Shown here one piece after another: positions 100 to 49,880 of a stretch of DNA of 64,000 bases. Each line of letters opens with the position of its first letter. Positions within the stretch are counted from its first letter, which is position 1. A program made the position numbers and the translations under genes. The notes under the pieces were generated by a model that saw only the letters and a program-made list of their open reading frames with translations, ran no database searches and was not told the DNA's origin. The DNA is from Patescibacteria group bacterium (GTDB taxonomy: Bacteria; Patescibacteriota; Minisyncoccia; UBA6257; 2-01-FULL-56-20): the NCBI GenBank assembly GCA_024654525.1, contig JANLHI010000021.1, forward strand, positions 1,969-65,968, written 5' to 3'.

Positions 100-345
100 A
101 ACCCGCCTGTGTTCATGCGAACTATGGCGAGGCGAAGTGGGGAAGCGGGTGAGAATCCCGCACAGTGCCGCTACGGTGAAGTCCCGCCTGTGTTCAATAG
201 AACTTCGGCGAGACACAAGTCCGAGTACCACTCTTTGGAATGTTTCGTGTGCGTCCCCGCATTCTGCGGGGCAAGTCTCTCGAGCAAGAGGCAAGCCTGT
301 TTGTCGAACAGACTCCCCCTTGCGGTGGGTTTTTTATTTCCGAAT
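100..345 (+). promoter_or_regulatory. Candidate cobalamin (AdoCbl) riboswitch with expression platform, upstream of the 398..2257 gene
   Basis: Core AGUGGGGAAGCGGGUGAGAAUCCCGCACAGUGCCGCUACGGUGAAG (about 137-182) matches the conserved cobalamin-riboswitch core (GGGAA..GGUGA.AAUCC..ACAG; compare T. tengcongensis AGUGGGAAAGUGACGUGAAAUUCGUCCAG). A B12-box-like AAGUCCGAGUACCACUC follows at about 218-234. A strong hairpin CCCCGCAUUCUGCGGGG (256-272) and a GC-rich segment plus U-run (about 312-336) precede the start codon at 398. Downstream genes are B12-related. Confidence 0.6.
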
Positions 346-397
346 AAATTCCCCATCGTAGTATTAATTATAAAAAGCGGATGATCCGCTTCGTCTC

Positions 398-2257
398 ATG
401 AAAAAAAAGTTATTCGCGAGTATTCTACTCGCCACGTTCCTTGCAAACACGTTTGTAGCAGCAATTCCCGTGCACGGCGACACAAACACTTCAATTACTT
501 ATCTGAAGTCAAAGCCACTCACCCCATGGACCATCATGGCGCTTATCGCCGCGGGAGAATCTCCCTCGCTTGATTCGCTCAAAACTCTCCCTGAAAACGG
601 AAAGGCGATTGATTATGAAGCGCCTATTCTCGCCATTACTTCCGCCAATAAAGATCCCCGCACATTCGGAAGCGAAGATTATGTCGCAAAACTCAAAGGA
701 TTTTCGGATGGCATTCAACTCGGCGACACCACGATTTTGAATGATGACGTATTCGGTATTCTTGCGCTTGTCGCCGCAGGAGAACCGAAGGACGGCGACA
801 TAATTTCGCAGACGACGCAGTTCCTCCGTAACCATCAGAATGGCGATGGAGGATGGGGATATGCCGTGGGTGGTACGAGCGATACTAATACCACCGCCGC
901 CGCAGTCATGGCGCTTGCCTCAACGGGAATGCCCTCGAGCGAAGAGCCGATAGTGAACGCGCTTGAATACCTGAAAGCCGCGCAGAACGGCGATGGGGGG
1001 TTTCCTTACGACCCCAAGAGCGAATGGGGTACGGATTCGGACTCATCTTCGGACGCATGGGTAATCATGGCAATTAAGAGCGCAGGGCAAGATCCTTCCT
1101 CGTGGCAAAAGGAAGGCGGAACACCCATCTCCAACCTTGCTACGTTTGAAGACGAATCGGGGTTTTATCTCTATCAACCCGGCAACTCCGAAGATTCATT
1201 CAGCCCTACCACTACTTCATACTCACTGATTGCTCTCGCGGGAAAATTCTTTCCGCTCCATACCATCACACCCACAACACCCACGTCCGTACATTATTCC
1301 TACAGAATAGAAGGAAAAACGCAGGGGCTTTGCGCGGGAGAATCGGACGGACTCAAAGCAATTGATTCGATACCGACCGCCGGCGATGCATGCGGTATTA
1401 CCTATCATATCCAAGAATCCTCACTTGGTTCCTATGTCGACGAAATTGCTACGGAAAAAGCGGAAGGTTCTTCGGGATGGATGTATACCGTGAACAATGA
1501 ACCTCCGAGTGTCGGCGCAAGCGACTACACATTGTCCGCAGGGGATGGAATAATTTGGTATTACGGCGTGTATGGCGACGAACTCCTTCGTCTTACATTG
1601 AATACCACAAGTACTTCTGCAGGCACTCCCATTTCGGGCACCGTGGCAACCTACCATGCACATGCATGGACTCCCCTTGCAGATGCGGTAGTACGCACCA
1701 CGACCGCGTCCACCACCACCGACGGCACGGGAACATTTTCACTCACGCTTCCCGAAGGGATACACTCCCTTGTCGCGGAAGCTCCTCGGCATATTCGCAG
1801 TAATATGGAGAAGATAATGGTGGGCACTCCCGACGCCACTGCAATCGAGCTCAGCGTCACTATTCCCGAATCCCAAAATACAGGAGGGGGTAACACGGGG
1901 GGGAACGGTGGGACTGGAGGAGGCGGTTCTTCTCAAGGCGTATCGATTATGGTAGAAACAGGCACGGAAGATGGGGGCCTTGATTTCGGTTCGCTTGGGA
2001 TAGGCGCCTCACAAAAGAAAACTATTACTATAAAGAATCGTGGCAATAAAAAACTTGCCATGCAGGCGGTAGTCGGCGGGGATGACATATTCAGAAGCTA
2101 TCTCTTTCTTGACGGAAAAACATGGCGCGTATTCCATGTTGCAGTGGATCCCGGAGCATCAGTCGCACCCGAAACATCGCTTCGCATCCCATCCGCGTAT
2201 TCCGCAGCAGGTATAAAAAAGGGATCACTTGTATTCTGGGCGGTGCCTACGGAATAA
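398..2257 (+). CDS. Secreted transcobalamin/intrinsic-factor-like cobalamin-binding protein: N-terminal signal peptide, prenyltransferase/squalene-cyclase-type alpha/alpha-toroid repeats, DUF4430-like beta domain, beta-sandwich domains and a Gly-rich linker
   Basis: Signal peptide MKKKLFASILLATFLANTFVAA. Repeated QNGDGGWGY / QNGDGGFPY (QxxDGGW/F prenyltransferase-alpha/alpha-toroid repeat motif). Segment SGWMYTVNNEPPSVGASDYTLSAGDGIIWYYG resembles the DUF4430 (transcobalamin beta-domain-like) signature. GGGNTGGNGGTGGGGSS linker. Sits directly downstream of the candidate B12 riboswitch. Confidence 0.6.
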   Translation: MKKKLFASILLATFLANTFVAAIPVHGDTNTSITYLKSKPLTPWTIMALIAAGESPSLDSLKTLPENGKAIDYEAPILAITSANKDPRTFGSEDYVAKLKGFSDGIQLGDTTILNDDVFGILALVAAGEPKDGDIISQTTQFLRNHQNGDGGWGYAVGGTSDTNTTAAAVMALASTGMPSSEEPIVNALEYLKAAQNGDGGFPYDPKSEWGTDSDSSSDAWVIMAIKSAGQDPSSWQKEGGTPISNLATFEDESGFYLYQPGNSEDSFSPTTTSYSLIALAGKFFPLHTITPTTPTSVHYSYRIEGKTQGLCAGESDGLKAIDSIPTAGDACGITYHIQESSLGSYVDEIATEKAEGSSGWMYTVNNEPPSVGASDYTLSAGDGIIWYYGVYGDELLRLTLNTTSTSAGTPISGTVATYHAHAWTPLADAVVRTTTASTTTDGTGTFSLTLPEGIHSLVAEAPRHIRSNMEKIMVGTPDATAIELSVTIPESQNTGGGNTGGNGGTGGGGSSQGVSIMVETGTEDGGLDFGSLGIGASQKKTITIKNRGNKKLAMQAVVGGDDIFRSYLFLDGKTWRVFHVAVDPGASVAPETSLRIPSAYSAAGIKKGSLVFWAVPTE

Positions 2258-2275
2258 TCGCGAATCACTCATCTC

Positions 2276-2824
2276 ATGCTCAATACTACAAATAGCCGCC
2301 TTATACTCGGAGCAATTGCTGCAATTGCGCTACTTATTATTCCGTTTACTTTTGTGCGCGCAATCGGCATTACCGCACTTCCCTCCGAAATTACGATAAC
2401 AGTGTCGCGAGGAGAAAATACCACAGCCCACCTTACCGTTCAGAATCCCTCGCGCGAGGTCGCGATATTTGAAGTCTATCCCGATGACCTTGATACCATG
2501 ATCATACCGATCCCCTCGCGGTTTACGCTTGAATCAGCCGAAACGCGCGTAATAGAAATAAAACTTATCCCAAAACAAGAAGGAGTATTTACCACCAATC
2601 TTTCTGTTCTTGCACGTCCCATTACTGACCCACTTCTCGGCATTGGAAGCGGTCTTAAGATTCCCATCAATATCACCGTCACCGCACCACGCACTATGTC
2701 GCTTGCATCAATAATTTCCCTCTCATCACCTCTGGGAATCATTGTTGCGCTTCTTGCAACACTTGCAGTATGTATTTATGCGTTTCATCGTGCACTTAAA
2801 AAAAGAACCGCAGAGCGGTATTAA
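2276..2824 (+). CDS. Hypothetical membrane-anchored protein (N-terminal TM/signal, beta-rich domain, C-terminal TM anchor); likely co-transcribed with the 398..2257 gene
   Basis: 18-nt gap after the upstream gene, same strand. Hydrophobic N-terminus LILGAIAAIALLIIPF and C-terminal TM LGIIVALLATLAVCIYAF followed by basic residues. Confidence 0.4.
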   Translation: MLNTTNSRLILGAIAAIALLIIPFTFVRAIGITALPSEITITVSRGENTTAHLTVQNPSREVAIFEVYPDDLDTMIIPIPSRFTLESAETRVIEIKLIPKQEGVFTTNLSVLARPITDPLLGIGSGLKIPINITVTAPRTMSLASIISLSSPLGIIVALLATLAVCIYAFHRALKKRTAERY

Positions 2825-2847
2825 TTGACACCTCTTTATAAAGCCGT

Positions 2848-3306
2848 TTATTGCGAAATACGTCCGAGAAGAGGAATGCGTGAAAACGCACGTTCCAATC
2901 CCCACATATGTCCCGCGCGCAACGCAGAGAGAAGGAGTAGCGCCGCGGCATAGATAATATGTTCATCCACAATATACGAGTGCGCGTTCGGATAGGGAAA
3001 CTCAAGAATCGGAAGATAGTAGAGCACCATCATCAACGCACCGAGGATACCACTCCACCGCACCCCGATGCCTAAAATAAGAGATGCTCCGATAAGGGTT
3101 AATCCCCACTCGTTTATAAAGTTGGTAAACGGAAGCAATGCGGGGCTCGCAAGTGCGTTATAGAATCCAGGAAATGTTTTTGCAGATTGAAGATATCCAA
3201 CCGCAGACCATGCAGGATTCATTATTTTGACAATACCTGCGTAGAAAAACATCCACCCCGTTGTGATGCGAAGTAGAAACACCGCTATTTTCGCATTACG
3301 TCTCAT
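2848..3306 (-). CDS. DoxX family membrane protein
   Basis: 152 aa, four hydrophobic segments, N-terminal motif AVFLLRITTGWMFFYAGIVKI typical of DoxX/DoxD-like proteins. Confidence 0.55.
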   Translation of the reverse strand: MRRNAKIAVFLLRITTGWMFFYAGIVKIMNPAWSAVGYLQSAKTFPGFYNALASPALLPFTNFINEWGLTLIGASLILGIGVRWSGILGALMMVLYYLPILEFPYPNAHSYIVDEHIIYAAALLLLSALRAGHMWGLERAFSRIPLLGRISQ

Positions 3307-18441: not shown

Positions 18442-19477
18442 TTATATATCGGCACTTTCAATCTCTGCTTCGATAAACATGCTCAAATCACCCTCAAGCA
18501 CTTTATTTACCTGCGAGGTCTCGACTTCCGTACGATGGTCTTTCACCAATTGATACGGATTCAGTACATACGACCTAATTTGATTTCCCCACTCCGGCTT
18601 CACTTTGATACGAATATTTGAAAGCTCTTCTATATGATGTTTCTCCATAAGTTGCACTATCTTCGCCTTCAAAAGACGCAGGGCGTACTCGCGGTTTTGC
18701 TGTTGAGAACGCTCGACGCGGGAGCTTACCGCAATACCGGTAGGAATGTGGACAATACGCACCGCAGTCTCTACTTTATTTACGTTCTGCCCTCCCGGCC
18801 CACCGGCGCGCGAGAATTCAAATTTTAAATCTCCTTCGGGAATCACCACTTTCGACTCCTCTACGGGAGGAAGATCGGGTACCACTTCCACAAGCGCAAA
18901 TGCGGTATGACGAAGTTTTTTCGGGGAAAACGGGGAAATACGCACAAGCCGATGCACTCCGGATTCTTTTTTCAGATATCCGAAAGCATATTGCCCTTTT
19001 ACTTCAATCATTCTGCTACGGGGGTTATCATCCACAATTCGCGTTTTCCATTCCTGTAACTCGGCATACTTTATATACATTTCCGCAAGCATCCGCGCCC
19101 AATCCTCTGCATCCTCTCCTCCCGCACCGGGATAGAACGAAAGTATCGCCGATTGCGTGTCATATTTTCCTTTAAATAATTCCTTGAGTTCTAAAAAGCG
19201 AAATTTTCTTTTTATATCGTAATAAAGACTTTCATCGAATAATGATTCAAGTTTTATGATTCCTTCTTCTACTTCCTCATATTGATCCGTGAGATCGCGA
19301 AGTATTCCGAGTTGTTTAATCTTCTCGTCGGCAATCGTTCGATTACCCCAAAACTCAGGCTCACTTATCGCCTTTTCAATCGCCTCTATCTCCTTTTTTT
19401 TAGCCGTTACGTCAAAGCCGCCCGCCTAACCGGCGGGCTTCGATTGCAAATTCCTCTAGCTGCGCTTTGAAATCCAT
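18442..19477 (-). CDS. prfB: Peptide chain release factor 2, expressed via a +1 programmed ribosomal frameshift
   Basis: Frame 0 (from ATG at about 19477) encodes MDFKAQLEEFAIEARRLGGRL followed by TGA within CTT TGA C (about 19411-19417). The +1 frame continues DVTAKKKEIEAIEK... into the listed ORF 18442..19092, which contains the GGQ motif (SRAGGPGGQNVNK) and an SPF-type RF2 region. Confidence 0.85.
19411..19417 (-). other. prfB +1 frameshift site CTT TGA C
   Basis: The canonical RF2 autoregulatory frameshift heptamer, located at codon 21-22 of prfB. Confidence 0.8.
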
Positions 19478-21756: not shown

Positions 21757-22071
21757 TTAATATTCATGAGTATCTATTGTACTCCGCTCAAACCTACTTT
21801 TGCAAAAACCCCTGACTTCGCACGCGCCTCGCCTGCGCCGACCTGTCTGCCGTGCCAACGGCACAGGTAGAGGCTTCGCGGGCAGATAGCCATGGACGAT
21901 CCTACTGTGCCCCTTCGTAGCTTTCTTGTCCGCCGAAGCTTTAGCGAAGGTGGAGCGAAGTAGGAACGGAAATGCCCGAGGCTCATTTACGTATGTGCTT
22001 GCCCCGACCCTCCCATGCACACGCAAACCCGCCGTCTCCAGCTTGCTTCGCGCCAGAGATGGCGGGACTCC
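21757..22071. other. GC-rich, ORF-poor 315-nt noncoding region with several hairpins; possible structured ncRNA or intergenic repeat element
   Basis: Local GC is clearly above the flanking sequence. Contains a GTGCC-AAC-GGCAC hairpin. Shares the 8-mers CGCCTGCG, GCGGGCAG, GCCGAAGC and CGGAAATG with the 29400-29560 region. Has only partial resemblance to the RNase P P4 strand (GGAAATGCCCGAGGCTC). Confidence 0.3.
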
Positions 22072-24336
22072 CTAAAGTTTCTTTATCTCACCCAATACCT
22101 CCTCAACATTCCCTGTATGCACGAGAAAGAAATGCTGGTCTTTACCGAGTTTCGCCCATAGTTCACCAATCTCAATCTTGTATGCCGTGTCTTCATTGCT
22201 CACGCGATCGCCGCCTTTCCACTCAAGCGCGATAATCGCGCCTTTATTGGTGACCGCGATAAAGTCGGGGTAAAACTTTCCTTTCTTCCAACCTTGGATA
22301 AAGAACGGGTCCACCTTCTCGCGACTGCGCACCCAGTATTTAATGTTCGCGAGGGTGTCCAAGTCAAGACGTTGAACAAACTCGTGTTCCTCCTTGTTTA
22401 GCTTGTCAATTTTCTCGTAGTAGTTTCGATTGAACTCTTGCGGCACGGCGCGTTTTAGCGTGATGGTGTCGGGAAATGCCTTAAACGGCTTTGTAGAAAC
22501 CTTCCCTGCTTTCATCTTGGTGTCGAACTGTGTCTTCGCATACGCTTCGAGAACAGATTCGATGTGCTGGCTCAAACGATCCGCGAGCACGAAGCGATTT
22601 ACCGAAAGCTCCGCAAGCGAATGTGTTTTGAGTTGATGGTCAATCGCCTTGTCCAAGAAGCGCACCTTGTCCGACTTCTCAAGAATCGTGAAGCGCAGTT
22701 TTTTATCGAGCCATTGTACAAGCTCCTCTTTGGTAAGGTTTTTGTCCGAGTATTTCAACTTGAGCGACATTTGTACTCCTCGTATCCACGCATCATCTTC
22801 CCGGATGTCAATAATCGCGCGACCATCACTGTCATAATGCACTTCAAAATCAAATTTCGGGTCTTGCTTCGCAAGCTCAAAATCACTGCCGATCAAATCC
22901 TCAAAGGTGAGCTTGTCGCCATCAAGCGCCATGAGTGGCACTTTGAGGATCCCGGACACTGCCTTCTTTGCTTCAAGTTCGTATACAGCATCTTTCTTTT
23001 CAGCGCTTACGATGTCTGCTCGGCTGTATCCGTTGTCTTCAAGTCCGGAGATAATCTGGTTCGCCGCCTCGTTAAAGTTTCGCGCCGAGGCAAACACATA
23101 GCTTCGGTTAAAATCTTCGTCGGTTTTCCGCTTCGCATTCGGCATGCGGATAATGCGCCCGATAATCTGTTCCACGGCAATTTTCGAGCCGAGGTTCGCA
23201 ACAGAGACGAGTACATACGCAAACGCGCAGTCCCATCCTTCCGCAAGCGCGTTGACGGTGATGATGTAGCGTATTTTGCAGGTTTTGCTAAAGAGGTTCA
23301 CGCCTTCAAGATCGTTCTTATCCGATGTCTTGATAGCGATTTCTTCTTCGGGAATTTTTCGCTCCAAAAGAAAAGCTTTTATCTCCTCCACGGTAACGGT
23401 CTTGTTCACCGAGCTTTTTGGCTGTGCCTGCAAGAGTGCTATCGGCCGGATGTACTCGTTCTTTATTTTCTTCGCTCCTTTTTCAAGTTCAATGCGCTTT
23501 TCAATACCGTTCGTGAGCGCGTTTTGCCACTGCGCCGCACTTTCAAGCACAATAGGAATTTTGACCATCTGCTCATCTTTCAATTCAGACGCATGTACCT
23601 CAAAGAGAATATTGCTTTCCTTGAGCGGCGTGGCAGTGTACTCAACAACAAATGCGGGGTTGAGACCGTTTATAGTTTCAAGAGACAAATCCGAAGTCGC
23701 CTTATGTCCCTCGTCGATGACTATAATCGGATTATTCAAACGAATGGTGTTTGCGAGCGAGTTAATGACCGTGCCTTCCTCGTCGCGCTCTAAATATTCC
23801 GGCTCCTCAATATTTTCAAAATGATCCATCAACGAGCCGTTCTCTTGGTACACCTTGTATTTGCCTTGCTTCTGCTTTTTCTTATTGAACGCCGCAAAGC
23901 TGGCTACGATAATGCAAAGATTATCGCTCACATCCGCCTTGCGGATAGCAAGAGCTTCTTCGTTTGAGAATACACGCACATGGTTGTCATACGATTCATC
24001 ATGAATCTGGCGGTGCGGGTCTTTGCGGTCTTTCAGTTTTTTGAGCGTTTGCGTTTTAATTGCTTCGGAAGGTGTAAACCACAACACAACGCCACGATCC
24101 ATCTTGTCTTGAAGTGCTTTGCTCATTATTTTCTCAACCGCGTGACACCCGACGAGCGTCTTGCCTCCACCGGTCGGTATTTTAATGCAGACAAACGGCA
24201 CTTCGCCAAATGCCTCCGCTTTGTACGGGTTTTCGGTGATGCCCATAAAGGCATACCTCAACCCGACTTTCCGAAGTTCGACCAGAAAGTTCTCAAGCGT
24301 TTCTAAACTATTCTTTTGGTATCGTTTTAGTTGCAT
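22072..24336 (-). CDS. res: Type III restriction endonuclease, Res subunit (SF2 helicase plus nuclease)
   Basis: Helicase motif I PTGGGKT and motif II DEGH. 754 aa. Lies immediately downstream of the mod gene on the same strand. Confidence 0.8.
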   Translation of the reverse strand: MQLKRYQKNSLETLENFLVELRKVGLRYAFMGITENPYKAEAFGEVPFVCIKIPTGGGKTLVGCHAVEKIMSKALQDKMDRGVVLWFTPSEAIKTQTLKKLKDRKDPHRQIHDESYDNHVRVFSNEEALAIRKADVSDNLCIIVASFAAFNKKKQKQGKYKVYQENGSLMDHFENIEEPEYLERDEEGTVINSLANTIRLNNPIIVIDEGHKATSDLSLETINGLNPAFVVEYTATPLKESNILFEVHASELKDEQMVKIPIVLESAAQWQNALTNGIEKRIELEKGAKKIKNEYIRPIALLQAQPKSSVNKTVTVEEIKAFLLERKIPEEEIAIKTSDKNDLEGVNLFSKTCKIRYIITVNALAEGWDCAFAYVLVSVANLGSKIAVEQIIGRIIRMPNAKRKTDEDFNRSYVFASARNFNEAANQIISGLEDNGYSRADIVSAEKKDAVYELEAKKAVSGILKVPLMALDGDKLTFEDLIGSDFELAKQDPKFDFEVHYDSDGRAIIDIREDDAWIRGVQMSLKLKYSDKNLTKEELVQWLDKKLRFTILEKSDKVRFLDKAIDHQLKTHSLAELSVNRFVLADRLSQHIESVLEAYAKTQFDTKMKAGKVSTKPFKAFPDTITLKRAVPQEFNRNYYEKIDKLNKEEHEFVQRLDLDTLANIKYWVRSREKVDPFFIQGWKKGKFYPDFIAVTNKGAIIALEWKGGDRVSNEDTAYKIEIGELWAKLGKDQHFFLVHTGNVEEVLGEIKKL

Positions 24337-24340
24337 ATAA

Positions 24341-25873
24341 TTAATATACTTTCACCTCGTACGGAATCTGCTTAAAGACGATGTTATGAGCGGCAAGTGT
24401 GTCGTCGTCCAATAGACATCGGTCTGCGTAGACTATCTTCTTTTTATCAGAATCTCCAATCGTCTTGAGTGTCGCCTTGTCGAGCTCATTTTTGTTCTTT
24501 CCCTTGTAGAGAAGATAGTATTCGGTGTCGCCATACTCGCCGATATAGTTGCCACTGATTTTCTTTGGGTCAATATTTGTTTGCGTTTCGGTGAAGTAGA
24601 TATAAGTGGCAAATTGTTTAAAATCGCAGGTTTCTTCGATCTGTCCATCCTCGTTGAAAAGCGGCTTGTCTAACTCGCAATACTCAAAGCCGTCATTGTA
24701 GTCGTACTTTTTGATAGCCCGCTTCACGCGCTCGGCAGTAATGTCTCTTGCAACCTTATCTTCCATTTCCACGAGGATAAATTTCCGGCTTCCACCGTCT
24801 TCTTTGTTTAAGTCCAAAACAGCTTGCGCTGTTGTACCGGAGCCTGCAAATGAGTCCAAAATGAGAGAGTCTTTTTGCGAAGCTAGTTCAAGAATTCTTT
24901 TGATCAAACCGACGGGTTTTGGCGTCTCAAAAATACCTCCATCAAAAAGATTAATAATCTCATTCTTACCTTCCTTGTTTGTCGCAACGTCTGTCCAAAT
25001 GTTGCTTGCCGGAATACCCGTGCTCTCGTGCGCATAAATCACGCGCTGAGGTACACCGTCGCCTTTCATGCCAAAATAAATCTTGCCCTCACTCAGTAGA
25101 CGTTTATAGCTTTCCTCCGGGTATGCCCATTCTCTTTTGTGTTTTTTGCCAGAAGGCGTAACTATTTCGTAAGTATATCCACCACTTTTATGCCCCTTTG
25201 TTGTGGCTATGGGTACCGGTCTCCACTTTCCGTTTGGAAATTCTTTTGTCGGCGGTTTGTATGCAGTTTCAATATAAGCTTCGCTGAGAGAAAGCAAATT
25301 AAGTTGGGCGATTTTGGAACGAGCATACACAACGATATATTCTGCCTTTACCGTGATATTTCTACTATCGTTTGAGCTCTCTTTCTTCCGTTGCCATGTG
25401 ACGGTCGTAACGTGATTTTCTTCAAGAAAAATCTCATCCATAGCACCACGAAGATTGCAGTGCTCATTTTCATCAACAGAAATAAATATAAATCCGTCGT
25501 CTGTTAGTAAATCGCGCAAAAGTTTCAGGCGCGGATACATCATGCAAAGCCACTTGTCGTGACGCGTTAAATCTTCCGACTCTTTTCCGACAACTTTGCC
25601 AAGCCACTGTTTTATCTTTGGTGAGTTTACTTTGTCGTTATAAACCCACCCTTCGTTGCCGGTATTGTACGGAGGATCAATGTAAATACATTTAACTTTG
25701 CCGACATAGTGTGGCATCAATGCTTTAAGCGCTTCCAAATTGTCGCCGTGCACTATGAGGTTTTTTGAATGCTCGCCAACAGACGCACCTTTTACTTTCT
25801 TGAACAACTTAAAAGGAACCTCCTTATCGTGGTTTACAACTGCATCTTTACCTATCCAGTTTAGCGTTGCCAT
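24341..25873 (-). CDS. mod: Type III R-M DNA methyltransferase, Mod subunit (N6-adenine or N4-cytosine MTase, DPPY type)
   Basis: Motif IV CIYIDPPYNTG and motif I LILDSFAGSGTTAQAV; 510 aa. Confidence 0.85.
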   Translation of the reverse strand: MATLNWIGKDAVVNHDKEVPFKLFKKVKGASVGEHSKNLIVHGDNLEALKALMPHYVGKVKCIYIDPPYNTGNEGWVYNDKVNSPKIKQWLGKVVGKESEDLTRHDKWLCMMYPRLKLLRDLLTDDGFIFISVDENEHCNLRGAMDEIFLEENHVTTVTWQRKKESSNDSRNITVKAEYIVVYARSKIAQLNLLSLSEAYIETAYKPPTKEFPNGKWRPVPIATTKGHKSGGYTYEIVTPSGKKHKREWAYPEESYKRLLSEGKIYFGMKGDGVPQRVIYAHESTGIPASNIWTDVATNKEGKNEIINLFDGGIFETPKPVGLIKRILELASQKDSLILDSFAGSGTTAQAVLDLNKEDGGSRKFILVEMEDKVARDITAERVKRAIKKYDYNDGFEYCELDKPLFNEDGQIEETCDFKQFATYIYFTETQTNIDPKKISGNYIGEYGDTEYYLLYKGKNKNELDKATLKTIGDSDKKKIVYADRCLLDDDTLAAHNIVFKQIPYEVKVY

Positions 25874-25990: not shown

Positions 25991-26019
25991 TTGACTTTTT
26001 ATTGTACATAGTCTAGGAT
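25991..26019 (+). promoter_or_regulatory. Candidate sigma70-type promoter of the higB cassette (TTGACT, 17-nt spacer, TAGGAT) with a TGTACA palindrome in the spacer
   Basis: Sequence inspection only. A TTGTTgggAACAA inverted repeat lies just downstream and could be an operator. Confidence 0.3.
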
Positions 26020-26061: not shown

Positions 26062-26349
26062 ATGAGATTACTGGGCAAACAACAGCTACACGACTTTAAG
26101 GAAAAACATGCTGATGCCCGGTCGCAGGTCGAATCGTGGGAGGCGGAAGTCGAGAGCGCGGAGTGGAAAACCCCTCACGAACTCAAGAGTAGGTTCCCTA
26201 GCGTAGATACACCCGGTAACCAGCAAGCCATTTTCAATATATGTGGCAACAAATACCGGCTGTGGGCACAGGTAGAGTATAAGCAAGGAATCGTGTTAGT
26301 AAAGAGGATTGGAACACATAAGGAATACAGCAAGTGGAAAATCGTATAA
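26062..26349 (+). CDS. higB: Type II toxin HigB family (RelE/ParE superfamily mRNA interferase)
   Basis: 95 aa. NQQAIFNICGNKYRLWAQVEYKQGIVLVKRIGTHKEYSK matches the HigB_toxin family pattern (F.I.GN.YRL...IGTH.EY). Confidence 0.7.
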   Translation: MRLLGKQQLHDFKEKHADARSQVESWEAEVESAEWKTPHELKSRFPSVDTPGNQQAIFNICGNKYRLWAQVEYKQGIVLVKRIGTHKEYSKWKIV

Positions 26350-26355
26350 AAAGCC

Positions 26356-27603
26356 ATGACCCAAATAAAAGTTATAAAAAATCAAAAAGACTACGAAGAA
26401 GCTCTCAAGCTCATTGAGGGGCTTATGAACCGTAGCCCTGACCCCAACAGCGACGAAGGTGCACAACTTGAACTTCTTAGCGTCCTTATTGAGGACTACG
26501 AGTCAAGACAATTCCCTAGTGCACTTCCTAGTCCTGTCGAGGCAATCAGATTCCGCATGGAACAAAGCGACCTCAAACCGGTTGATCTCGTACCCTACCT
26601 CGGTAGCCGTAGCCGTGTTTCTGAAATCCTTTCCGGAAAACGACAACTCACGCTTGATATGGTTCGTGCTCTTTCTACGGGTCTTGGTATTCCGGAAAAG
26701 GTGCTTGTCCAAAAACCGAATCAATCGGAAGAATCGCGTTATGAACGCTGGGATATACGCATAGTCCGGGCTATGGAAAGCTACGGGTACTTCGGGAACA
26801 AAACGCTAAAGAAATTCAACAAGGGCGAACTACTGAAAAAATATTTTGGCTCTTTTGGTGGAAACTTACAACCAGTAGCACTTCTCCGTGCCAGTATCAG
26901 CCATCGTTCTGCCCCAAGAACAGATACTGGGGCATTGGATGCATGGAAAATTCGCGTGCTACAAAAAGCAGAGAAAATAAAAACGTCTGTTAAATACAAA
27001 CACGGGGTTATTGATGTTGATTTCATGCGCAAGCTCGTCAAATTAAGCACAAAAAAAGACGGGCCAACTTTGGCGTGCGAAGAATTAAAAAAGATAGGAA
27101 TCAAAGTGGTGATTGAACGACATCTTCCAAAAACTTTCCTCGATGGTGCAGCTATTCTAGAAGATAAAGACAATCCTGTAATCGGCATCACACTTCGACA
27201 TGACCGACTAGATAACTTCTGGTTTACGCTTATGCATGAGGTGGCTCACGTAGCACTACACTGCGATCAAAATATCAGCACTTTTTACGATGAGAAATTG
27301 CTAGAAAAGAACGGAGGGCAAATGACAGAAGAAGAACAGAAACGGGAACGTGAAGCCGACGAATGGGCGGAGGAAGCCATTTTACCGGAGAGTAAGTGGG
27401 AGATTAGTAACGCAAAAATCACTCCATCACCCATGGCAGCACAAAGTCTCGCTAACGAACTCAGTATTCACGTTGCCGTAGTTGCTGGTGTTGTGCGATT
27501 CAAACATCAAAATTTCTTCTACTTGAACAAGATCGTTAATGACGAAACTGCAAAAGTACGCCGACTATTTCCTGATGCGTTTAAAGCAAAAACAGTAACA
27601 TGA
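26356..27603 (+). CDS. HigA-like antitoxin (helical N-domain plus XRE HTH) fused to an ImmA/IrrE (DUF955, M78-like) metallopeptidase domain
   Basis: Residues 1-135 mirror the E. coli HigA architecture (YEEALKLIEGLMNRSPDPNSDEGAQLELLSVLIEDYE, then LGSRSRVSEILSGKRQLTLDMVRALSTGLGI). The C-terminal region carries the HExxH motif HEVAHVALH with downstream Glu residues, typical of ImmA/IrrE. Confidence 0.7.
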   Translation: MTQIKVIKNQKDYEEALKLIEGLMNRSPDPNSDEGAQLELLSVLIEDYESRQFPSALPSPVEAIRFRMEQSDLKPVDLVPYLGSRSRVSEILSGKRQLTLDMVRALSTGLGIPEKVLVQKPNQSEESRYERWDIRIVRAMESYGYFGNKTLKKFNKGELLKKYFGSFGGNLQPVALLRASISHRSAPRTDTGALDAWKIRVLQKAEKIKTSVKYKHGVIDVDFMRKLVKLSTKKDGPTLACEELKKIGIKVVIERHLPKTFLDGAAILEDKDNPVIGITLRHDRLDNFWFTLMHEVAHVALHCDQNISTFYDEKLLEKNGGQMTEEEQKREREADEWAEEAILPESKWEISNAKITPSPMAAQSLANELSIHVAVVAGVVRFKHQNFFYLNKIVNDETAKVRRLFPDAFKAKTVT

Positions 27604-28715
27604 CAGCTATAAAACCCTACATTCCTATACTTCGCTCACGACCTGCTGAAATGCTGGCACTTGAACGCATGTATCCGCAAGATCGCGAACAGATTACACC
27701 GTTTATCGAGTTCATCATGCCACCACCAAAAACAGACAAAGATGATCGCACGAAGATTGTCGAGGACTCTAGAAGTAAACTTCTCAGACAACTATCAGAT
27801 GTTGGCGTGCGACTTCTCAAGTATTGTGGTAGAGAAGCAGTATTTATAGACGTGCATCTACTCGACGGGGATATACGTGCAGATGCGTTTGAAAGCATTC
27901 TTTCGGCAACAAACGAAGTTGATCTCTTCTCAATTCCCGTTGTTCATATTGTCCCTGTTATAGGTACAGATGCGGACATGGCAACACGAGAAGTGGCTGT
28001 GAAATACGCAAAAATCAACGACAGAGGTATGTGTATTCGTATTGATATTTCTCATTTCAAAGACGAGAATCTTGTGACTCACATTGATGAGTTCATAAAA
28101 GACAGTGATCTTGATATAAAAAATATTGATATTTTGGTTGACCTTCAAATCGTTGATGAGAGCACAACAGCAGAATCCGTCGTTGGAAAACTTAATCGTC
28201 TTCCGCAAATCAAATCCTGCCGCTCTTTTATTCTTACGGGAGGAGCATTTCCAAAAGATCTCTCAGAATACCCCAAACATGGGAACTACCAACGAGAACG
28301 GCTTGACTATGCGCTTTGGCAAAGCGTAAGTAACTTGATTACAAGTCGAAAACCGTATTTCTCTGACTACACAATCCAACATCCTATTTACTACGGCAAC
28401 ATGCCCGGTGTGAACCCTAGCGCTAGCGTACGGTACACAAACGATACCCAATGGGAGATTATTCGAGGTGAAGGTTTGAGAAATAAAAAAGGGGCAGGAT
28501 TCAAACAGTATTTGGCACATGCACGAGAGATAATTCAACAGCCATTCTACAAGAACGCCGATTATAGTTTTGGGGATTCAGAAATTAACCGTATTGCTTC
28601 GCAGGATGAAAAGACAGGAAATCCGCAACTGTGGCTAAACATTGGTATCAACCACCATTTGACGCTAGTGGCGAAACAACTCGCTGACTTTCGCGAGAAG
28701 ATAAAGCAGTCATAA
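27600..28715 (+). CDS. Uncharacterised 371-aa protein, translationally coupled to the HigA-ImmA gene (ATGA start/stop overlap)
   Basis: Clean ORF with coding-like composition. No motif I can assign with confidence. From memory only, it may belong to the sce7725 / beta-protein family that pairs with sce7726-type PD-(D/E)xK proteins. Confidence 0.5.
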   Translation: MTAIKPYIPILRSRPAEMLALERMYPQDREQITPFIEFIMPPPKTDKDDRTKIVEDSRSKLLRQLSDVGVRLLKYCGREAVFIDVHLLDGDIRADAFESILSATNEVDLFSIPVVHIVPVIGTDADMATREVAVKYAKINDRGMCIRIDISHFKDENLVTHIDEFIKDSDLDIKNIDILVDLQIVDESTTAESVVGKLNRLPQIKSCRSFILTGGAFPKDLSEYPKHGNYQRERLDYALWQSVSNLITSRKPYFSDYTIQHPIYYGNMPGVNPSASVRYTNDTQWEIIRGEGLRNKKGAGFKQYLAHAREIIQQPFYKNADYSFGDSEINRIASQDEKTGNPQLWLNIGINHHLTLVAKQLADFREKIKQS

Positions 28716-29301
28716 CGTGCCCTTTGAGCGCGTCGAGATCGTCCTTGAAGACCTCGGCAATCTTCTCGTGAATTACACTGCGGGATTTTGAACGAATGCC
28801 ATCAGCCGCGTTTCTCTCCTCCAAGATGCTTAGGGCCTGTGTGCGCCACAGCATTCGAGCTAGGGAAACAGGTACTTGAGCGTCTTCATTCTGTCTTGCC
28901 TCTCGAATCGTAAAGAAAACAACCTGTTGACCTGAGTCTATCTTTGCGAGATCAATACCCCACCATTCCGGGATCCGGTGAATCGCGTCGAGTAAATGAC
29001 GCTGACCAACAACGAGCGTTATCTTATCAAAAACTTCGTTGTACTCGTGGATCTGATCAAACAAGCGTGAGAGAGTATCTTTGTCGCTCTTAATCTCATA
29101 ACCGTGCATAACGCCGTTTATGACGGCCATATCGATTCGTGCCCTACCATGACTCACTCCTAGTTCCTCAAAAATGTCGGCCTGCTTACCAGTTTGCGTT
29201 CTATACTCGTCCAACTCTTTTTCAATACGCCGTCGCAATTCTATTCGTATGATGTGATCATTCGTGGAAACTATTTTTTTATTGAAATTTTGTGTTTCCA
29301 T
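28648..29301 (-). CDS. PD-(D/E)xK nuclease-fold protein (possibly sce7726-like), convergent to the 27600..28715 gene, with a 68-nt 3' overlap
   Basis: Motif GRARIDMAVINGVMHGYEIKSDKD fits the D...(E/D)xK catalytic core. 217 aa. Confidence 0.5.
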   Translation of the reverse strand: METQNFNKKIVSTNDHIIRIELRRRIEKELDEYRTQTGKQADIFEELGVSHGRARIDMAVINGVMHGYEIKSDKDTLSRLFDQIHEYNEVFDKITLVVGQRHLLDAIHRIPEWWGIDLAKIDSGQQVVFFTIREARQNEDAQVPVSLARMLWRTQALSILEERNAADGIRSKSRSVIHEKIAEVFKDDLDALKGHVMTALSSRESQRVVSPLASNGG

Positions 29302-29507
29302 GATTAAAAAGCAAGAACAACCGATACATAGATTTTACCACAACAACGCTATCACTGGATACCAGTGTCGCTGTGGATGAACAACCGACCGAGCCCCGTT
29401 TTCCGCCCCCGCCTATACAAATGTTTCGGCGGGCAGGCATTCAATTTCTAAAAAAGTACCTACGCCTGCGTGGCCGAAGCCACTTCGGCGAGGCGAAGGC
29501 CCGCAAC

Positions 29508-29527
29508 CTGCCTGCCGGCAGGCAGGA
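29508..29527. repeat. Perfect 20-bp GC-rich palindrome CCTGCCTGCCGGCAGGCAGG (copy 1)
   Basis: An exact second copy is at 49853..49872. Embedded in a GC-rich noncoding region that also contains a GCCGAAG-CCA-CTTCGGC hairpin and motifs shared with the 21757-22071 and 100-215 regions. Confidence 0.8.
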
Positions 29528-29620
29528 AAAATAAAAAACATAGACAGCGGAAATGGGGCAGAGGGCCGGACGCGCCGCCAAAATTTCTGCCCCTAAAAAG
29601 CCAGTTGAGTTTGATTCTTG

Positions 29621-29692
29621 AGCCGGTGGTCGGATTTGAACCGACGACCCACGCTTTACGAAAGCGTTGCTCTGCCCCTGAGCTACACCGGC
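29621..29692 (-). tRNA. tRNA-Thr (anticodon CGU)
   Basis: Minus-strand sequence GCCGGTGTAGCTCAGGGGCAGAGCAACGCTTTCGTAAAGCGTGGGTCGTCGGTTCAAATCCGACCACCGGCT folds as a cloverleaf. Anticodon loop TTCGTAA, T-loop GGTTCAAATCC. CCA is not encoded. Confidence 0.85.
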
Positions 29693-29852: not shown

Positions 29853-32800
29853 ATGCCTAAATTCGTACACTTACATACTCACTCCCACTATTCGCTTCTC
29901 GATGGACTCGCAAAAATCGAAGACCTTGTGGCACGCACCAAAGAGCTCGGCATGGATACGCTTGCATTAACCGATCATGGCGTACTCTATGGTGCAGTAG
30001 AATTTTATAAAAAAACGAGAGCGGCGGGCATCAAACCCATCTTAGGAGTCGAAGCATACATTGCACCGAAGGAACGCCAAAATAAAGACGCGGGAGACAG
30101 ATATTATCACCTTATTCTTCTTGCCGAAAATAATACGGGGTGGAAAAATCTCATAAAACTCGTAACAAAAGCACAGCTTGAAGGGTTTTATTACAAACCA
30201 CGGATGGATAAAGAACTTCTTCGCGAATATCACGAAGGCATTATCTCACTTTCAGGATGCTTCTCCGGAGAACTTGCGCGCGCCATTCTTGCGGGAGATT
30301 CCGGCGAAAAGATACTTAAGGAATATCAGGATATCTTCGGTCCGGAAAATTTCTTTATCGAGATAGGGTACCATCCTCACATCAATCGCGCAGAACACGA
30401 CAAACTTTGGAACGGCTTGATTGCACTTTCAAAAAAAACGGGGGCTCCTCTTGTCGCCACACAAGACCTTCACTATGCGCGCCCCGAAGACCGCGACTAC
30501 CATGATATATTGCTTGCGGTTCAAACCGGGAGCAATTTGAGCGACCAAGACAGACTCACCCTCAAAGCGGATGACTTTTCCATGACGTCTCCCGAGGATA
30601 TGGCAGAAAAATTCAAAGATATTCCCGAAGCGGTAACGAACACCGTTCGCATCGCCGAACGATGCAATGTAACACTGGAACTTGGAAAAACTCAACTTCC
30701 CGAATTTCCAAAACCCGAAGGGATAAGCGCGAACGAGTATGTCCGCACGCTTGCCACCGAAGGATTAACACGCCGATTTCCCGGTATCACATGCACACAA
30801 GAAGCGAAAGATCGTCTTGAGTATGAGCTTGGCGTTATAGAAAAAACAGGATTTGCGGATTATTTCCTTATTGTCCAAGACCTTACCGGATGGGCGCGCG
30901 CGCATGGCATTGCGGTCGGTCCGGGCCGTGGTTCTGCGGCGGGAAGTCTGGTTTCCTATGTTCTGGGTATTACCGATATTAATCCTTTGAAATACGGATT
31001 ACTCTTCGAACGATTCTTGAATCCGGAGCGTATTCAAATGCCCGATATCGACATTGATTTTGCCGATGCGCGAAGAGACGAAGTACTTGCCTATGCCCGT
31101 CAAAAATACGGAGAAGACCACGTAGCGCAAATAATTACATTCGGGACTATGGCAGCACGTGCCGCAGTGAGGGATGCGGGACGGGCAATGGGTTTGCCGT
31201 ACGGTTTTTGCGATCAAATCGCGAAACTCATCCCTTTCAATGCATCGATCAAGGAATCTATTGACCAAGTACCCGAGCTTGCGGACATGGCTAAACAAAA
31301 CGAAGAAGCGCGCCGACTCTTGGACGCCGCACAACATCTTGAGGGTGTCGCACGACATGCATCGGTACACGCATGCGGTACGGTGATTACAAAAAAACCC
31401 CTCACCGAATATCTTCCTCTTCAATATGCCCCGCAAGACAGAGCGGTGATTATTACACAGTTTGAAATGCATTCCGTGGAAGACTTAGGACTTCTTAAAA
31501 TGGATCTTCTTGGGCTCCGAAACCTCACTATCATCGAGGAAACCGTGCGACTTGTGAAAAATATCCGCGGCGAAGATATTTATATTTCCGATCTTCCACT
31601 CGACGATGCCGCGACATATTCCCTTCTTCAAGCGGGTAACACTACCGGTGTGTTCCAATTCGAATGCCTTTCGGAAGAAACGATCGTATCCAATACCACC
31701 ATTAAAAAGCTCTACGAGCGGAAGAATAAGAAGACACTCGAGTCGGTATATGTCGACGAAGGGAAAGTACATAAAAATAAAATCCTTGGTGTCGCGAAAA
31801 GCGGCGTGAAAGACGTGTATGCGCTTGTCGCCGAGAACGGGTGGTATATCAAATCTTCTGCGGACCATAATTTTCTTACCGAGAACGGATGGAAGAAACT
31901 TTCGGATATTCGACCCGGCGAAAAGATACTCATGAAGACAAAAGCAAAGCACCTCGTCTATAACGCGTGCGCACGTTGCGGGAGGCAAATTAGCGGACAA
32001 AAAGAAGGACACAGCACATTCTGCTACACGTGTTCAGCTCGCGTATATAGCAACCCCAGCAAACCGATCTCGCGCACAAAAATGAAGGTCGCGCGAACGC
32101 GGTTTTTCGAACGAGGCGGAACAGTATGGAACGAAGGCGTAACGACCGAAAATAACGAGACTTGGCGTGCAACCGCGGAAAAAATATCGCATGCGCTCAC
32201 TGGCGTATCCATTGAAACGCGATGGGGCAAGAAAAAAGCCGCGGAGATAAAAGCCCGGTTGTCGCAAAGGTTTAGAGGCGCGGGGAATCCAATGTTCGGC
32301 AAACCTGCTCCCCACCGCAAAGGAGGCGTGCGAGGAGATTTGGGCCACTATGTGCGTTCAAATTGGGAAGCGGATTTTGCACGAATCCTCAAACTGTATG
32401 GAATCGCATATGAATATGAACCGAGATCCTTTACTCTTCAAAACTCGCGGGGAGAGGTAATGCATTATACTCCCGATTTTTACGTGAAAGCCACCAATAC
32501 TTTCTATGAAATAAAGGGATGGCTCCACGATATTGACCAGAAAAAAATGGACCTTTTCCGGCAACAGTATCCTGAATACAATTTTATTCTCATTAACAAA
32601 ACAAAGTTTGCGGAACTGGCGATGCGCTACCGCAGTCTTGTCGCTTGGGAATGTCCGAGGGTTCCTACAGAACGAAGTTTTAAATTTATAAAAGTGAGGG
32701 AAGTGCGGTACGCAGGAAAAGAAGAAACGTATGACATCGCGATGGAAGCACCCGGAAATAACTTCGTGGCAAATGGATTCGTCGTGCATAACTCGAGCGG

Positions 32801-34172
32801 CATGCGTCGCTATATGAAAGATATCCATCCCACCGAACTGGAAGATTTAATTGCGCTTGTGGCACTTTTCCGCCCCGGTCCCATGGAGCTTATTCCCACA
32901 TTTATCAAACGAAAACGCGGTGAAGAAAAAATTGTGTATCTTCATCCTCGACTGGAACCTATTTTGAAAAACACCAACGGCATTGGCGTATATCAGGAGC
33001 AAATGATGCAGATTGCCCGCGATCTTGCAGGCTACACACTCCCCGAAGCAGACACGCTTCGAAAAGCAATCGGTAAAAAAATAAAATCGCTTCTTGACGA
33101 ACAGAAAGTAAAACTTACGAATGGCATGATTAAAAATGGTATTCCTCAGAAAACCGCGGAAGCGATTTGGGAACTTTTTCCTCCCTTCGCACGCTACGGA
33201 TTTAACAAGTCGCACGCGGCATGCTACGCCCTGATCGGCTATCAGACCGCGTATCTTAAAGCTCATTATCCGGTTGAATCCATGGCGGCTCTTTTAAACG
33301 CAGAAGTCAGCGATATCGAACGTATTGCGTTTTTAGTCAATGAGGCACGGCAAACCGGAATATCCATCCTTCCTCCCGACGTAAACAGCAGTTTGGTCAA
33401 ATTCTCTCCGAATGGAGAAGAAGTGCGTTATGGGCTTCTCGGTATAAAGAATGTCGGGGAACAAATTGCGCAAGCAATAGTGGAAGAAAGGATACGGGGA
33501 GGCGCCTTCGAAAACTTCACTTCTTTTCTTGCACGCATTCAACATAAAGATTTAAATAAAAAATCACTCGAAAGTTTAGCAAAATGCGGCGCACTTGAAT
33601 CTCTTGATATAGAGCGCAATCAAGCTATCCAGAACATGGACGATATTGTCCGCTTTGCAGGAGTTGCGCGGAAAACCGCATCCCAAACCAATTCACTTTT
33701 TGGTAATTCAACCGCATCACTCTCCATTAAATTAAAACCCGCTCCTCCCGCAACGCGAGAAGAAAAACTCGGATGGGAAAAGGAGCTCCTTGGATTTTAT
33801 CTTTCTGATCATCCCCTGAATTCATTCAAGGAACAACTTGCTACTTTGCGTGCGCGAACGCTTACCGAACTTCGCACTATTAAAAACGAGAGTCTTACCA
33901 TACGCGCCGCAGGACTTATTACCACCATCAAAAAAATATTCACGAAAAAAGGAGATGCGATGATGTTTGTGACTATTGAAGACTTTTCCCCGCAACCCTT
34001 TGAAATAGTAATTTTCCCCCGCGTACTCGAAAAAACACAGGCAGTGTGGCAAGAAAACAATGTAGTCCTTCTTCAGGGAAAAATGTCTTGGCGTGGCGGA
34101 GAACCAAAAATCATCTGCGACGATGCAAGGAAATTGGAATTGCACCACACGGAGAAAAAAACGCCCGCTTAA
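29853..34172 (+). CDS. dnaE: DNA polymerase III alpha subunit, interrupted by an in-frame intein
   Basis: N-terminal PHP domain (HLHTHSHYSLLDG), polymerase core motifs, OB-fold C-terminus. 1439 aa including a 376-aa intein, leaving about 1063 aa of extein. Confidence 0.9.
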   Translation: MPKFVHLHTHSHYSLLDGLAKIEDLVARTKELGMDTLALTDHGVLYGAVEFYKKTRAAGIKPILGVEAYIAPKERQNKDAGDRYYHLILLAENNTGWKNLIKLVTKAQLEGFYYKPRMDKELLREYHEGIISLSGCFSGELARAILAGDSGEKILKEYQDIFGPENFFIEIGYHPHINRAEHDKLWNGLIALSKKTGAPLVATQDLHYARPEDRDYHDILLAVQTGSNLSDQDRLTLKADDFSMTSPEDMAEKFKDIPEAVTNTVRIAERCNVTLELGKTQLPEFPKPEGISANEYVRTLATEGLTRRFPGITCTQEAKDRLEYELGVIEKTGFADYFLIVQDLTGWARAHGIAVGPGRGSAAGSLVSYVLGITDINPLKYGLLFERFLNPERIQMPDIDIDFADARRDEVLAYARQKYGEDHVAQIITFGTMAARAAVRDAGRAMGLPYGFCDQIAKLIPFNASIKESIDQVPELADMAKQNEEARRLLDAAQHLEGVARHASVHACGTVITKKPLTEYLPLQYAPQDRAVIITQFEMHSVEDLGLLKMDLLGLRNLTIIEETVRLVKNIRGEDIYISDLPLDDAATYSLLQAGNTTGVFQFECLSEETIVSNTTIKKLYERKNKKTLESVYVDEGKVHKNKILGVAKSGVKDVYALVAENGWYIKSSADHNFLTENGWKKLSDIRPGEKILMKTKAKHLVYNACARCGRQISGQKEGHSTFCYTCSARVYSNPSKPISRTKMKVARTRFFERGGTVWNEGVTTENNETWRATAEKISHALTGVSIETRWGKKKAAEIKARLSQRFRGAGNPMFGKPAPHRKGGVRGDLGHYVRSNWEADFARILKLYGIAYEYEPRSFTLQNSRGEVMHYTPDFYVKATNTFYEIKGWLHDIDQKKMDLFRQQYPEYNFILINKTKFAELAMRYRSLVAWECPRVPTERSFKFIKVREVRYAGKEETYDIAMEAPGNNFVANGFVVHNSSGMRRYMKDIHPTELEDLIALVALFRPGPMELIPTFIKRKRGEEKIVYLHPRLEPILKNTNGIGVYQEQMMQIARDLAGYTLPEADTLRKAIGKKIKSLLDEQKVKLTNGMIKNGIPQKTAEAIWELFPPFARYGFNKSHAACYALIGYQTAYLKAHYPVESMAALLNAEVSDIERIAFLVNEARQTGISILPPDVNSSLVKFSPNGEEVRYGLLGIKNVGEQIAQAIVEERIRGGAFENFTSFLARIQHKDLNKKSLESLAKCGALESLDIERNQAIQNMDDIVRFAGVARKTASQTNSLFGNSTASLSIKLKPAPPATREEKLGWEKELLGFYLSDHPLNSFKEQLATLRARTLTELRTIKNESLTIRAAGLITTIKKIFTKKGDAMMFVTIEDFSPQPFEIVIFPRVLEKTQAVWQENNVVLLQGKMSWRGGEPKIICDDARKLELHHTEKKTPA
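31665..32792 (+). mobile_element. Intein in DnaE (Cys1...His-Asn, followed by Ser+1) carrying a homing-endonuclease-like insert with a Zn ribbon, a NUMOD-like segment and a PD-(D/E)xK-like motif
   Basis: The insertion splits the conserved GVFQFE / SSGMRRY extein junction. Block A CLSEET, block B SADHNFLT, block F/G ETYDIAMEAPGNNFVANGFVVHN then S. Internal CARCG...CYTC Zn ribbon and YTPDFYVKATNTFYEIKG. Confidence 0.8.
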
Positions 34173-49852: not shown

Positions 49853-49872
49853 CCTGCCTGCCGGCAGGCAGG
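49853..49872. repeat. Perfect 20-bp palindrome CCTGCCTGCCGGCAGGCAGG (copy 2), inside the rpsJ-rplC spacer
   Basis: Exact match to the copy at 29508..29527. Confidence 0.8.
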
Positions 49873-49880
49873 AGCGTGTA

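Follow-up and report, generated by a model that had tools for sequence, protein, structure and literature searches.

Which kind of system is encoded by a compact four-gene cassette in a Patescibacteria genome, and has that system been described before? The cassette, consisting of genes A to D (Table 1), lies in a 64,000-nucleotide stretch of contig JANLHI010000021.1, which we analyzed as a whole and refer to as the window. A first-pass annotation, made from the letters of the DNA, had regarded it as a candidate undescribed module for defense or abortive infection. We found that genes A to C are the three genes of PD-λ-2, a named anti-phage system, and that gene D is the cII component of the gop-β-cII system of satellite phage P4; what is new is their combination. 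The defense role proposed at first is well supported, because genes A to C belong to a system that is both named and validated, while the claim of novelty fails for these three genes and stands only for the four-gene variant. Assignment to a named system had been given in advance as something that would count against novelty, and because A to C constitute PD-λ-2, this is the outcome for three of the four genes. We consider the cassette to be, more probably than not, a four-gene anti-phage variant of PD-λ-2 in which genes A to C are joined tail-to-tail to the cII-type nuclease gene D, with a function that we infer from its relatives. In the searchable literature (open-access papers and bioRxiv), we found neither a report of a PD-λ-2 system with a cII gene nor a mechanism for β or cII.

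Composition of the four-gene cassette

The four open reading frames (ORFs) have exactly the positions and junctions first reported for them. The stop codon of A is followed after a gap of 6 nt by the ATG of B; the TGA of B and the ATG of C share the sequence ATGA, a stop/start overlap suited to translational coupling; and C and D converge, with their 3' ends overlapping by 68 nt. Since each ORF fits curated family profiles with E values between 1e-23 and 1e-139, none of the four is a chance reading frame.

Table 1. Features of the cassette and of its immediate surroundings, in nucleotide positions of the window
Feature	Position	Strand	Remarks
Gene A, HigB-like (RelE-fold), PD-λ-2 component A	26062-26349	+	95 aa; ORF confirmed
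Gene B, HigA-like HTH + ImmA/IrrE (M78) zinc peptidase fusion, PD-λ-2 component B	26356-27603	+	415 aa
HigA-like antitoxin module of B, residues 7-118	26374-26709	+	profile match to E. coli HigA 5ycl_A/5ifg_B
HExxH zinc-binding motif of M78, H294-E295-V-A-H298	27235-27249	+	invariant in alignment
Gene C, P4 β-family (Pfam Beta_protein), predicted TIM barrel	27600-28715	+	371 aa
Dual-coding 3' overlap of C and D	28648-28715	.	68 nt
Gene D, P4 cII / sce7726-family PD-(D/E)xK nuclease-fold	28648-29301	-	217 aa; convergent with C
D catalytic core, D57 (29131-29133) to E69-I-K71 (29089-29097)	29089-29133	-	codons read from sequence
Promoter-like site TTGACT-17-TAGGAT, 5' of gene A	25991-26019	+	weak evidence
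Type III restriction-modification (R-M) genes, Res 22072-24336 and Mod 24341-25873	22072-25873	-	neighbor, not part of the system
tRNA-Thr(CGU)	29620-29692	-	right boundary of islet

Gene A had been recognized as a HigB toxin, and this identification was borne out by its matches to Pfam HigB_toxin (E = 1.4e-25) and to the PADLOC profile PD-Lambda-2_A (3.9e-38). The protein aligns over its full length with E. coli K-12 HigB (5ycl_B/5ifg_A, 1.3e-7), with which it shares R66 and the residues T85-H-K-E-Y89. Gene B, described as a HigA-like antitoxin fused to an ImmA/IrrE metallopeptidase, is indeed such a fusion: it carries the Pfam domains HTH_3 and Peptidase_M78, the two histidines and the glutamate of its HExxH motif (H294, E295, and H298) are invariant, and it matches PD-Lambda-2_B with an E value of 3.2e-139, residues 1-407 aligning on positions 1-398 of the 402-position profile. 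Its HigA-like module covers the entire E. coli HigA antitoxin (3e-13) and is 44-46% identical to phage-borne HigA genes. In the crystal complex of E. coli HigBA (5ifg/5ycl), one chain matches protein A and the other the N terminus of B, and by homology with that complex the module is the probable docking site for A. We also obtained weak profile matches of B to capP and capH, the capP match being partial (2.6e-8).

Gene C had been set aside as an orphan without an assignable motif, a view that did not survive profile searches. It matches Pfam Beta_protein (PF14350) over its full length with an E value of 1.4e-59 and the PADLOC profile PD-Lambda-2_C with one of 3.3e-51, and its homologs bear the RefSeq name "beta family protein." Pairwise identity with P4 β is 23% (E = 1.8e-9) and rises to 30% with the β protein of an E. 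coli plasmid on which β and cII stand alone as a pair; this protein is closer to gene C than is the β of E. coli PD-λ-2. Structure modeling gave a confident TIM barrel followed by C-terminal helices, with a predicted local distance difference test score (pLDDT) of 88.9 and a predicted template modeling score (pTM) of 0.90. The many invariant charged residues located at or near the strand ends of the modeled barrel suggest an enzyme or a ligand pocket. A sequence search of the PDB returned no relative of gene C.

The exact β protein of the window was absent from a collection of 5.8 billion proteins, where its best match was 91% identical, and the exact B and D proteins were both present (P0121 and P0001). 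In the source record, the β gene may be missing from the gene calls or be called in another form.

Gene D was assigned to the cII family by several routes, namely NCBIfam sce7726_fam (2.1e-41), the precomputed Pfam family PF26915 (Phage_P4_cII), the PADLOC profile "cll" of gop_beta_cll (3e-23), and a tblastn match to P4 cII. A check of the sce7725 and sce7726 families, suggested by the first-pass annotation, was productive for D in the second case, and in the first case no NCBIfam match so named was found for the 371-aa protein C at E ≤ 0.1. Structure prediction confidently placed D in the PD-(D/E)xK superfamily, with the restriction-endonuclease-like α/β fold. The core noted earlier in this protein (IDMAV...GYEIK) was confirmed, and E46, D57, and E69-x-K71 are invariant in 54 close homologs and likewise in distant ones, P4 cII included. 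The predicted product of gene D is an enzyme that cuts DNA, akin to cII of satellite phage P4 and belonging to a family of approximately 4,880 representatives at 50% identity. The cassette had been expected to escape PADLOC and yet to be conserved; the first expectation was wrong, as genes A to C hit PD-Lambda-2 and D hits cll, and the second was right, as the four-gene arrangement is kept in other genomes.

Conservation of the four-gene arrangement

We surveyed the arrangement from both ends. The survey anchored on gene B covered one genome per species and found at least 586 genomes with a relative of B, of which the best 80 loci were classified with our own profiles; the survey anchored on gene D was a metagenome scan that found at least 492 relatives, and here too the best 80 were examined. 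A convergent D adjoined an intact β gene in all 35 genome loci that could be judged, one further locus having been left out because it held too little sequence beyond β. The loci carrying all four genes came from many lineages of the Candidate Phyla Radiation (CPR), as well as from Aminicenantes, Nitrospiraceae, Planctomycetota, Dehalococcoidales, Omnitrophota, Acidobacteriota, Armatimonadota, Gammaproteobacteria, Myxococcota, and Anaerolineae. A and B, or B alone, made up the locus in 36 of the 68 B-anchored cases with enough room. Among the metagenome loci, an intact β gene lay adjacent and convergent to D in 62 out of 62. Fifty-seven of these had a B-family ORF on the strand of β, 47 of them with A as well, and most of the five loci that lacked B were cut by contig ends. 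Pairwise distances of the B, C, and D proteins were strongly correlated across 87 loci (Mantel r: B-C, 0.73; C-D, 0.68; B-D, 0.81; p = 0.001), and these three genes co-evolve. In this clade, D is a conserved component of the locus, and chance adjacency is effectively excluded by the surveys.

One apparent exception to the arrangement (L164, 6578-8896, minus strand) turned out to be A-B-C-C'-D, with a tandem duplication of β in which the two copies matched the β profile at 6e-141 and 7e-155.

Stop codons set both 3' ends of C and D, and their overlap is therefore the same whichever start codons are chosen. The homologous overlap was exactly 50 nt long in 50 of 76 metagenome loci (range, 26-101 nt), and on plasmids and in prophages annotated by RefSeq β and cII share 32-47 nt. 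Compared over 61 distinct loci, third codon positions in the frame of C carried 1.23 bits within the overlap versus 0.40 bits in the adjacent single-coding part, and in the frame of D the corresponding values were 1.55 and 0.34 bits. Such high third-position conservation indicates that the overlap is under dual constraint, or under an additional constraint at the level of the nucleic acid. We considered whether the overlap might form a structured RNA or a bidirectional terminator and rejected the idea, as folding energies were no better than those of shuffled controls.

Relatives of the cassette and its genomic neighborhood

PD-λ-2 was discovered by functional selection from E. coli ECOR42 (Vassallo 2022, PMC9519451). 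Its components are a HigB-like protein, a peptidase fused to a HigA-like Xre helix-turn-helix (HTH) domain, and a third protein described as "related to a P4 phage antitoxin." The system acts by abortive infection; in E. coli, B alone is toxic, A rescues this toxicity, and C is needed for defense against λvir (PMC9519451). The window has these three proteins too, encoded in the same order on one strand, B fitting its profile over the full length. Its composition differs from the canonical three genes in the fourth, strictly co-occurring gene, since the clade of the window always adds a convergent and overlapping cII-type nuclease gene.

A sensitive blastn search recovered three chromosomal PD-λ-2 loci in E. 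coli (L198-L200), situated in integrase-bearing islands by ffs or ssrA; megablast with ABC loci lacking D gave no match in E. coli. When the proteins of one of these loci (L198) were compared with the PADLOC PD-Lambda-2 models, the scores (A, 1e-57; B, 2e-187; C, 1e-157) lay far above those of the window, and with the single β model PDLC03984, the E values were approximately 1e-157 for E. coli and approximately 1e-45 to 1e-51 for the window. Two viral contigs from the same clade (L099 and L100) have no D despite room for one. The E. coli islands also hold SIR2-family and DUF3223 (HamC-like) genes beside integrases at ffs/ssrA (L199, 6305-7822, minus strand; L200, 5926-6339 and 7251-8582, both plus strand), and they are typical composite defense islands.

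The second named relative is found in P4. In its record, gop and β run in one direction and cII runs toward them, tail-to-tail with β; the products of β and cII appear in RefSeq as "beta family protein" and "sce7726 family protein." Ghisotti 1990 is reportedly the original paper on the genetics of cII in P4. The gop-β-cII locus confers protection from λ and P1, and its Gop protein is toxic in the absence of β (Rousset 2022, PMC9122126); its trigger is the phage accessory gene orf184 (bioRxiv 10.1101/2023.04.06.535777). The window shares with this locus, which is a validated anti-phage system with toxin-antitoxin (TA)-like behavior, the convergent layout of β and cII and the invariant E...D...ExK residues. 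The differences are that HigB and the HigA-M78 fusion occupy the position of Gop, that β and cII of P4 do not overlap but are 27 nt apart with a terminator, and that P4 cII is longer (264 aa), with approximately 21-31% identity to D. Two of the three components, β and a convergent cII, are therefore present in the window, and the third is not: a phmmer search of the six-frame translation of the window with P4 Gop returned nothing at E ≤ 10.

Pairs of β and cII also occur without A and B or Gop. The E. coli phage Rac-SA53 carries such a pair, annotated as "CII phage-like protein" and "beta," and others are found on plasmid pSTEC1024_3, in a mycobacteriophage, and on Bacillus and Rhodococcus plasmids. 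A further set of loci, on Agrobacterium plasmid pAt2788b and in IMG/VR (L104, L105, L111, and L112), shares with the window a core in which an M78 gene precedes β and β converges with cII, again with overlapping 3' ends. In place of HigB, one type (pAt2788b, L104, and L086) has a DUF6932 protein resembling PADLOC PDC-M63A together with an XRE-HTH-M78 protein; in the other (L105, L111, and L112), a GNAT acetyltransferase-like protein comes first and the M78 peptidase has no HTH. Both types look like unnamed sister systems.

Two other comparisons bear on genes A and B. As in the HigB-HigA TA pair of E. coli K-12 (5ifg/5ycl), the toxin-like gene comes first, A aligns end-to-end with the toxin, and residues 7-118 of B equal the antitoxin; the differences are that the antitoxin of the window is fused to an extension of approximately 300 residues with an M78 peptidase and that, in the PD-λ-2 homolog, the fusion protein is toxic rather than the HigB-like one. 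The pairs ImmR-ImmA, DdrO-IrrE, and CapH-CapP share with B the combination of an HTH and an HExxH M78 peptidase, and with it the idea of a protease switch that responds to infection or DNA damage. These, however, are pairs of separate proteins controlling a downstream operon, whereas in the window the HTH and the protease are fused, the fusion is paired with a protein of toxin fold, there is no CBASS or prophage context, and D lies on the opposite strand.

The surroundings of the cassette were in part as first described, with a Type III R-M system on one side and a tRNA gene on the other. Because the R-M genes and the cassette stand between housekeeping genes and a tRNA, they form an islet of approximately 7.3 kb. 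Beyond the tRNA lies an intein-containing dnaE, and further to the left are housekeeping genes for an EamA transporter, asparaginase, release factor 2 (RF2), and FtsEX. No integrase or other mobility gene adjoins the cassette in the window. The adjacency to a Type III R-M system is retained in the closest relative (L197). It is seen in only 7 of approximately 190 loci overall, and for this reason we rejected a functional link between the two systems. Res and Mod of the window are 754 and 510 aa long, much shorter than the 971 and 624 aa encoded at the same position in L197 (Res at 257-3172, minus strand), and so the R-M partner differs or was remodeled.

The GC-rich flanks had been taken for repeat elements, and they are not repeats of each other: the intergenic stretches at 21790-22070 (56.5% GC) and 29370-29580 (52.5%, versus a window mean of 44.6%) had no significant similarity to each other, and Rfam matched only the tRNA. 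Their sole repeated part is a perfect GC-rich palindrome of 20 nt, CCTGCCTGCCGGCAGGCAGG, at 29507-29526, which recurs at 49853-49873. Promoter-like sites such as the one 5' of gene A were no more numerous in the region than in shuffled controls. An intein at residues 614-980 (Pfam Intein_splicing), carrying a NUMOD3 and Phage_endo_I-like homing endonuclease, splits the dnaE gene (29853-34172, plus strand; DNA polymerase III alpha, 1439 aa). The release-factor ORF (18442-19092, minus strand) contains only the C-terminal part of PCRF and the RF-1 domain; the N-terminal part must therefore be read from a different frame, in keeping with the programmed +1 frameshift of prfB (RF2).

How the cassette may work and what it means

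We propose that A would bind the HigA-like N terminus of B and that the two would neutralize each other, as the E. coli homolog and the homology to the HigBA crystal complex suggest. By analogy with ImmA, IrrE, and CapP, the M78 peptidase of B could be the switch or effector that is freed on infection and leads the infected cell into growth arrest. In E. coli, β is needed for defense and not for neutralization; here, together with the cII-type nuclease, it may form a phage-sensing or DNA-targeting arm. We infer such a joint arm from the strict coupling of β and cII, their co-evolution, and the intact catalytic residues of D. The conserved antisense overlap of their 3' ends might couple the expression of both arms.

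Several observations weigh against this reading. The abortive-infection phenotypes are known only from the three-gene E. coli system, and no cII-like ORF was present within ±4 kb of the three E. coli loci. Identity of the window proteins to these recovered loci is only 37-39% for B and 23-25% for C, and the validated ECOR42 locus is not among them. The validated ECOR42 clone reaches only approximately 390 bp past β and so cannot hold an intact D; E. coli PD-λ-2 thus defends against λvir without an intact D, which means that D is not universally needed. It is B, and not the HigB-like A, that proved toxic in the E. coli system. Structure comparisons of gene C gave generic TIM-barrel matches only, and we found no conserved RNA structure in the C/D overlap (mean z score of -0.28 over 60 loci; -0.46 for the window). 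Because the E. coli loci have no D and identity to them is low, we regard canonical PD-λ-2 as a D-less form and place the window in a separate, widespread four-gene clade.

The first-pass annotation had envisaged a toxin-gated regulator driving an effector and a nuclease. In its fullest form, A and B would be a transcriptional switch of the ImmR/ImmA or CapH/CapP kind, in which an XRE/HigA repressor, gated by HigB, is inactivated by its fused M78 peptidase and derepresses the effectors β and D. The HTH and M78 peptidase of B and its weak resemblance to capP and capH fit such a switch, the β-cII pairs without A and B (Rac-SA53, pSTEC1024_3, and the Bacillus and Rhodococcus plasmids) could be an autonomous effector core, and the M78-β-cII unit recurs with varying first genes. 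We nevertheless think this explanation unlikely and the proposed logic a poor fit, since toxicity of E. coli B alone and its rescue by A resemble a TA module rather than simple repression, D has an upstream region of its own on the other strand and hence lies outside any operon controlled by B, PD-λ-2 defends without D, and A-B pairs lacking β or D are common, as they should be for an autonomous TA-like module.

It is more doubtful still that the cassette serves mainly as an addiction or stabilization module of a mobile islet, or is a relic of lysogeny control, rather than a dedicated anti-phage system in its CPR host. Its HigBA-like core is a TA module of the classical type, the name cII comes from P4 genetics, β-cII pairs in prophages and plasmids adjoin hok/mok and other TA genes, and a distribution over many phyla at 50-60% identity is suggestive of horizontal transfer; both named relatives, however, protected against phages, the cassette stands beside no integrase or mobility gene, and its R-M neighbor fits a defense islet. 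Scarcely credible is the idea that D is an unrelated neighbor, for which its location on the other strand and the solitary cII-family genes without β in phages Mx4 and Edson might be cited, given the convergent arrangement in every judgeable locus of both surveys, the co-evolution, the dual-constrained overlap, and the same layout in P4.

Returning to the four-gene variant of PD-λ-2, we suggest tentatively, and with more reserve than conviction, that the convergent β and cII genes, with the invariant polar pocket of the β barrel and their dual-coding antisense overlap, are an ancient, autonomous phage-sensing or DNA-targeting core. In that case, PD-λ-2, gop-β-cII, and several unnamed systems would each combine this core with one of a set of interchangeable toxin modules (HigB, GNAT, DUF6932, and Gop), usually by way of an M78 protein, and the three-gene form of E. 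coli would be derived by loss of the nuclease.

PD-λ-2 and gop-β-cII are validated defense systems without a described mechanism and are catalogued as unrelated, and the variant described here links the two. Beyond the enterobacterial loci, PD-λ-2 operons always come with a cII-type nuclease gene whose active site is intact, and annotation that calls PD-Lambda-2 as three genes misses a component conserved in CPR bacteria and in many further phyla. An M78-β-cII core with swappable toxin-like genes would provide a unifying framework for these systems, with concrete targets in nuclease and peptidase mutants, the β pocket, and the antisense overlap.

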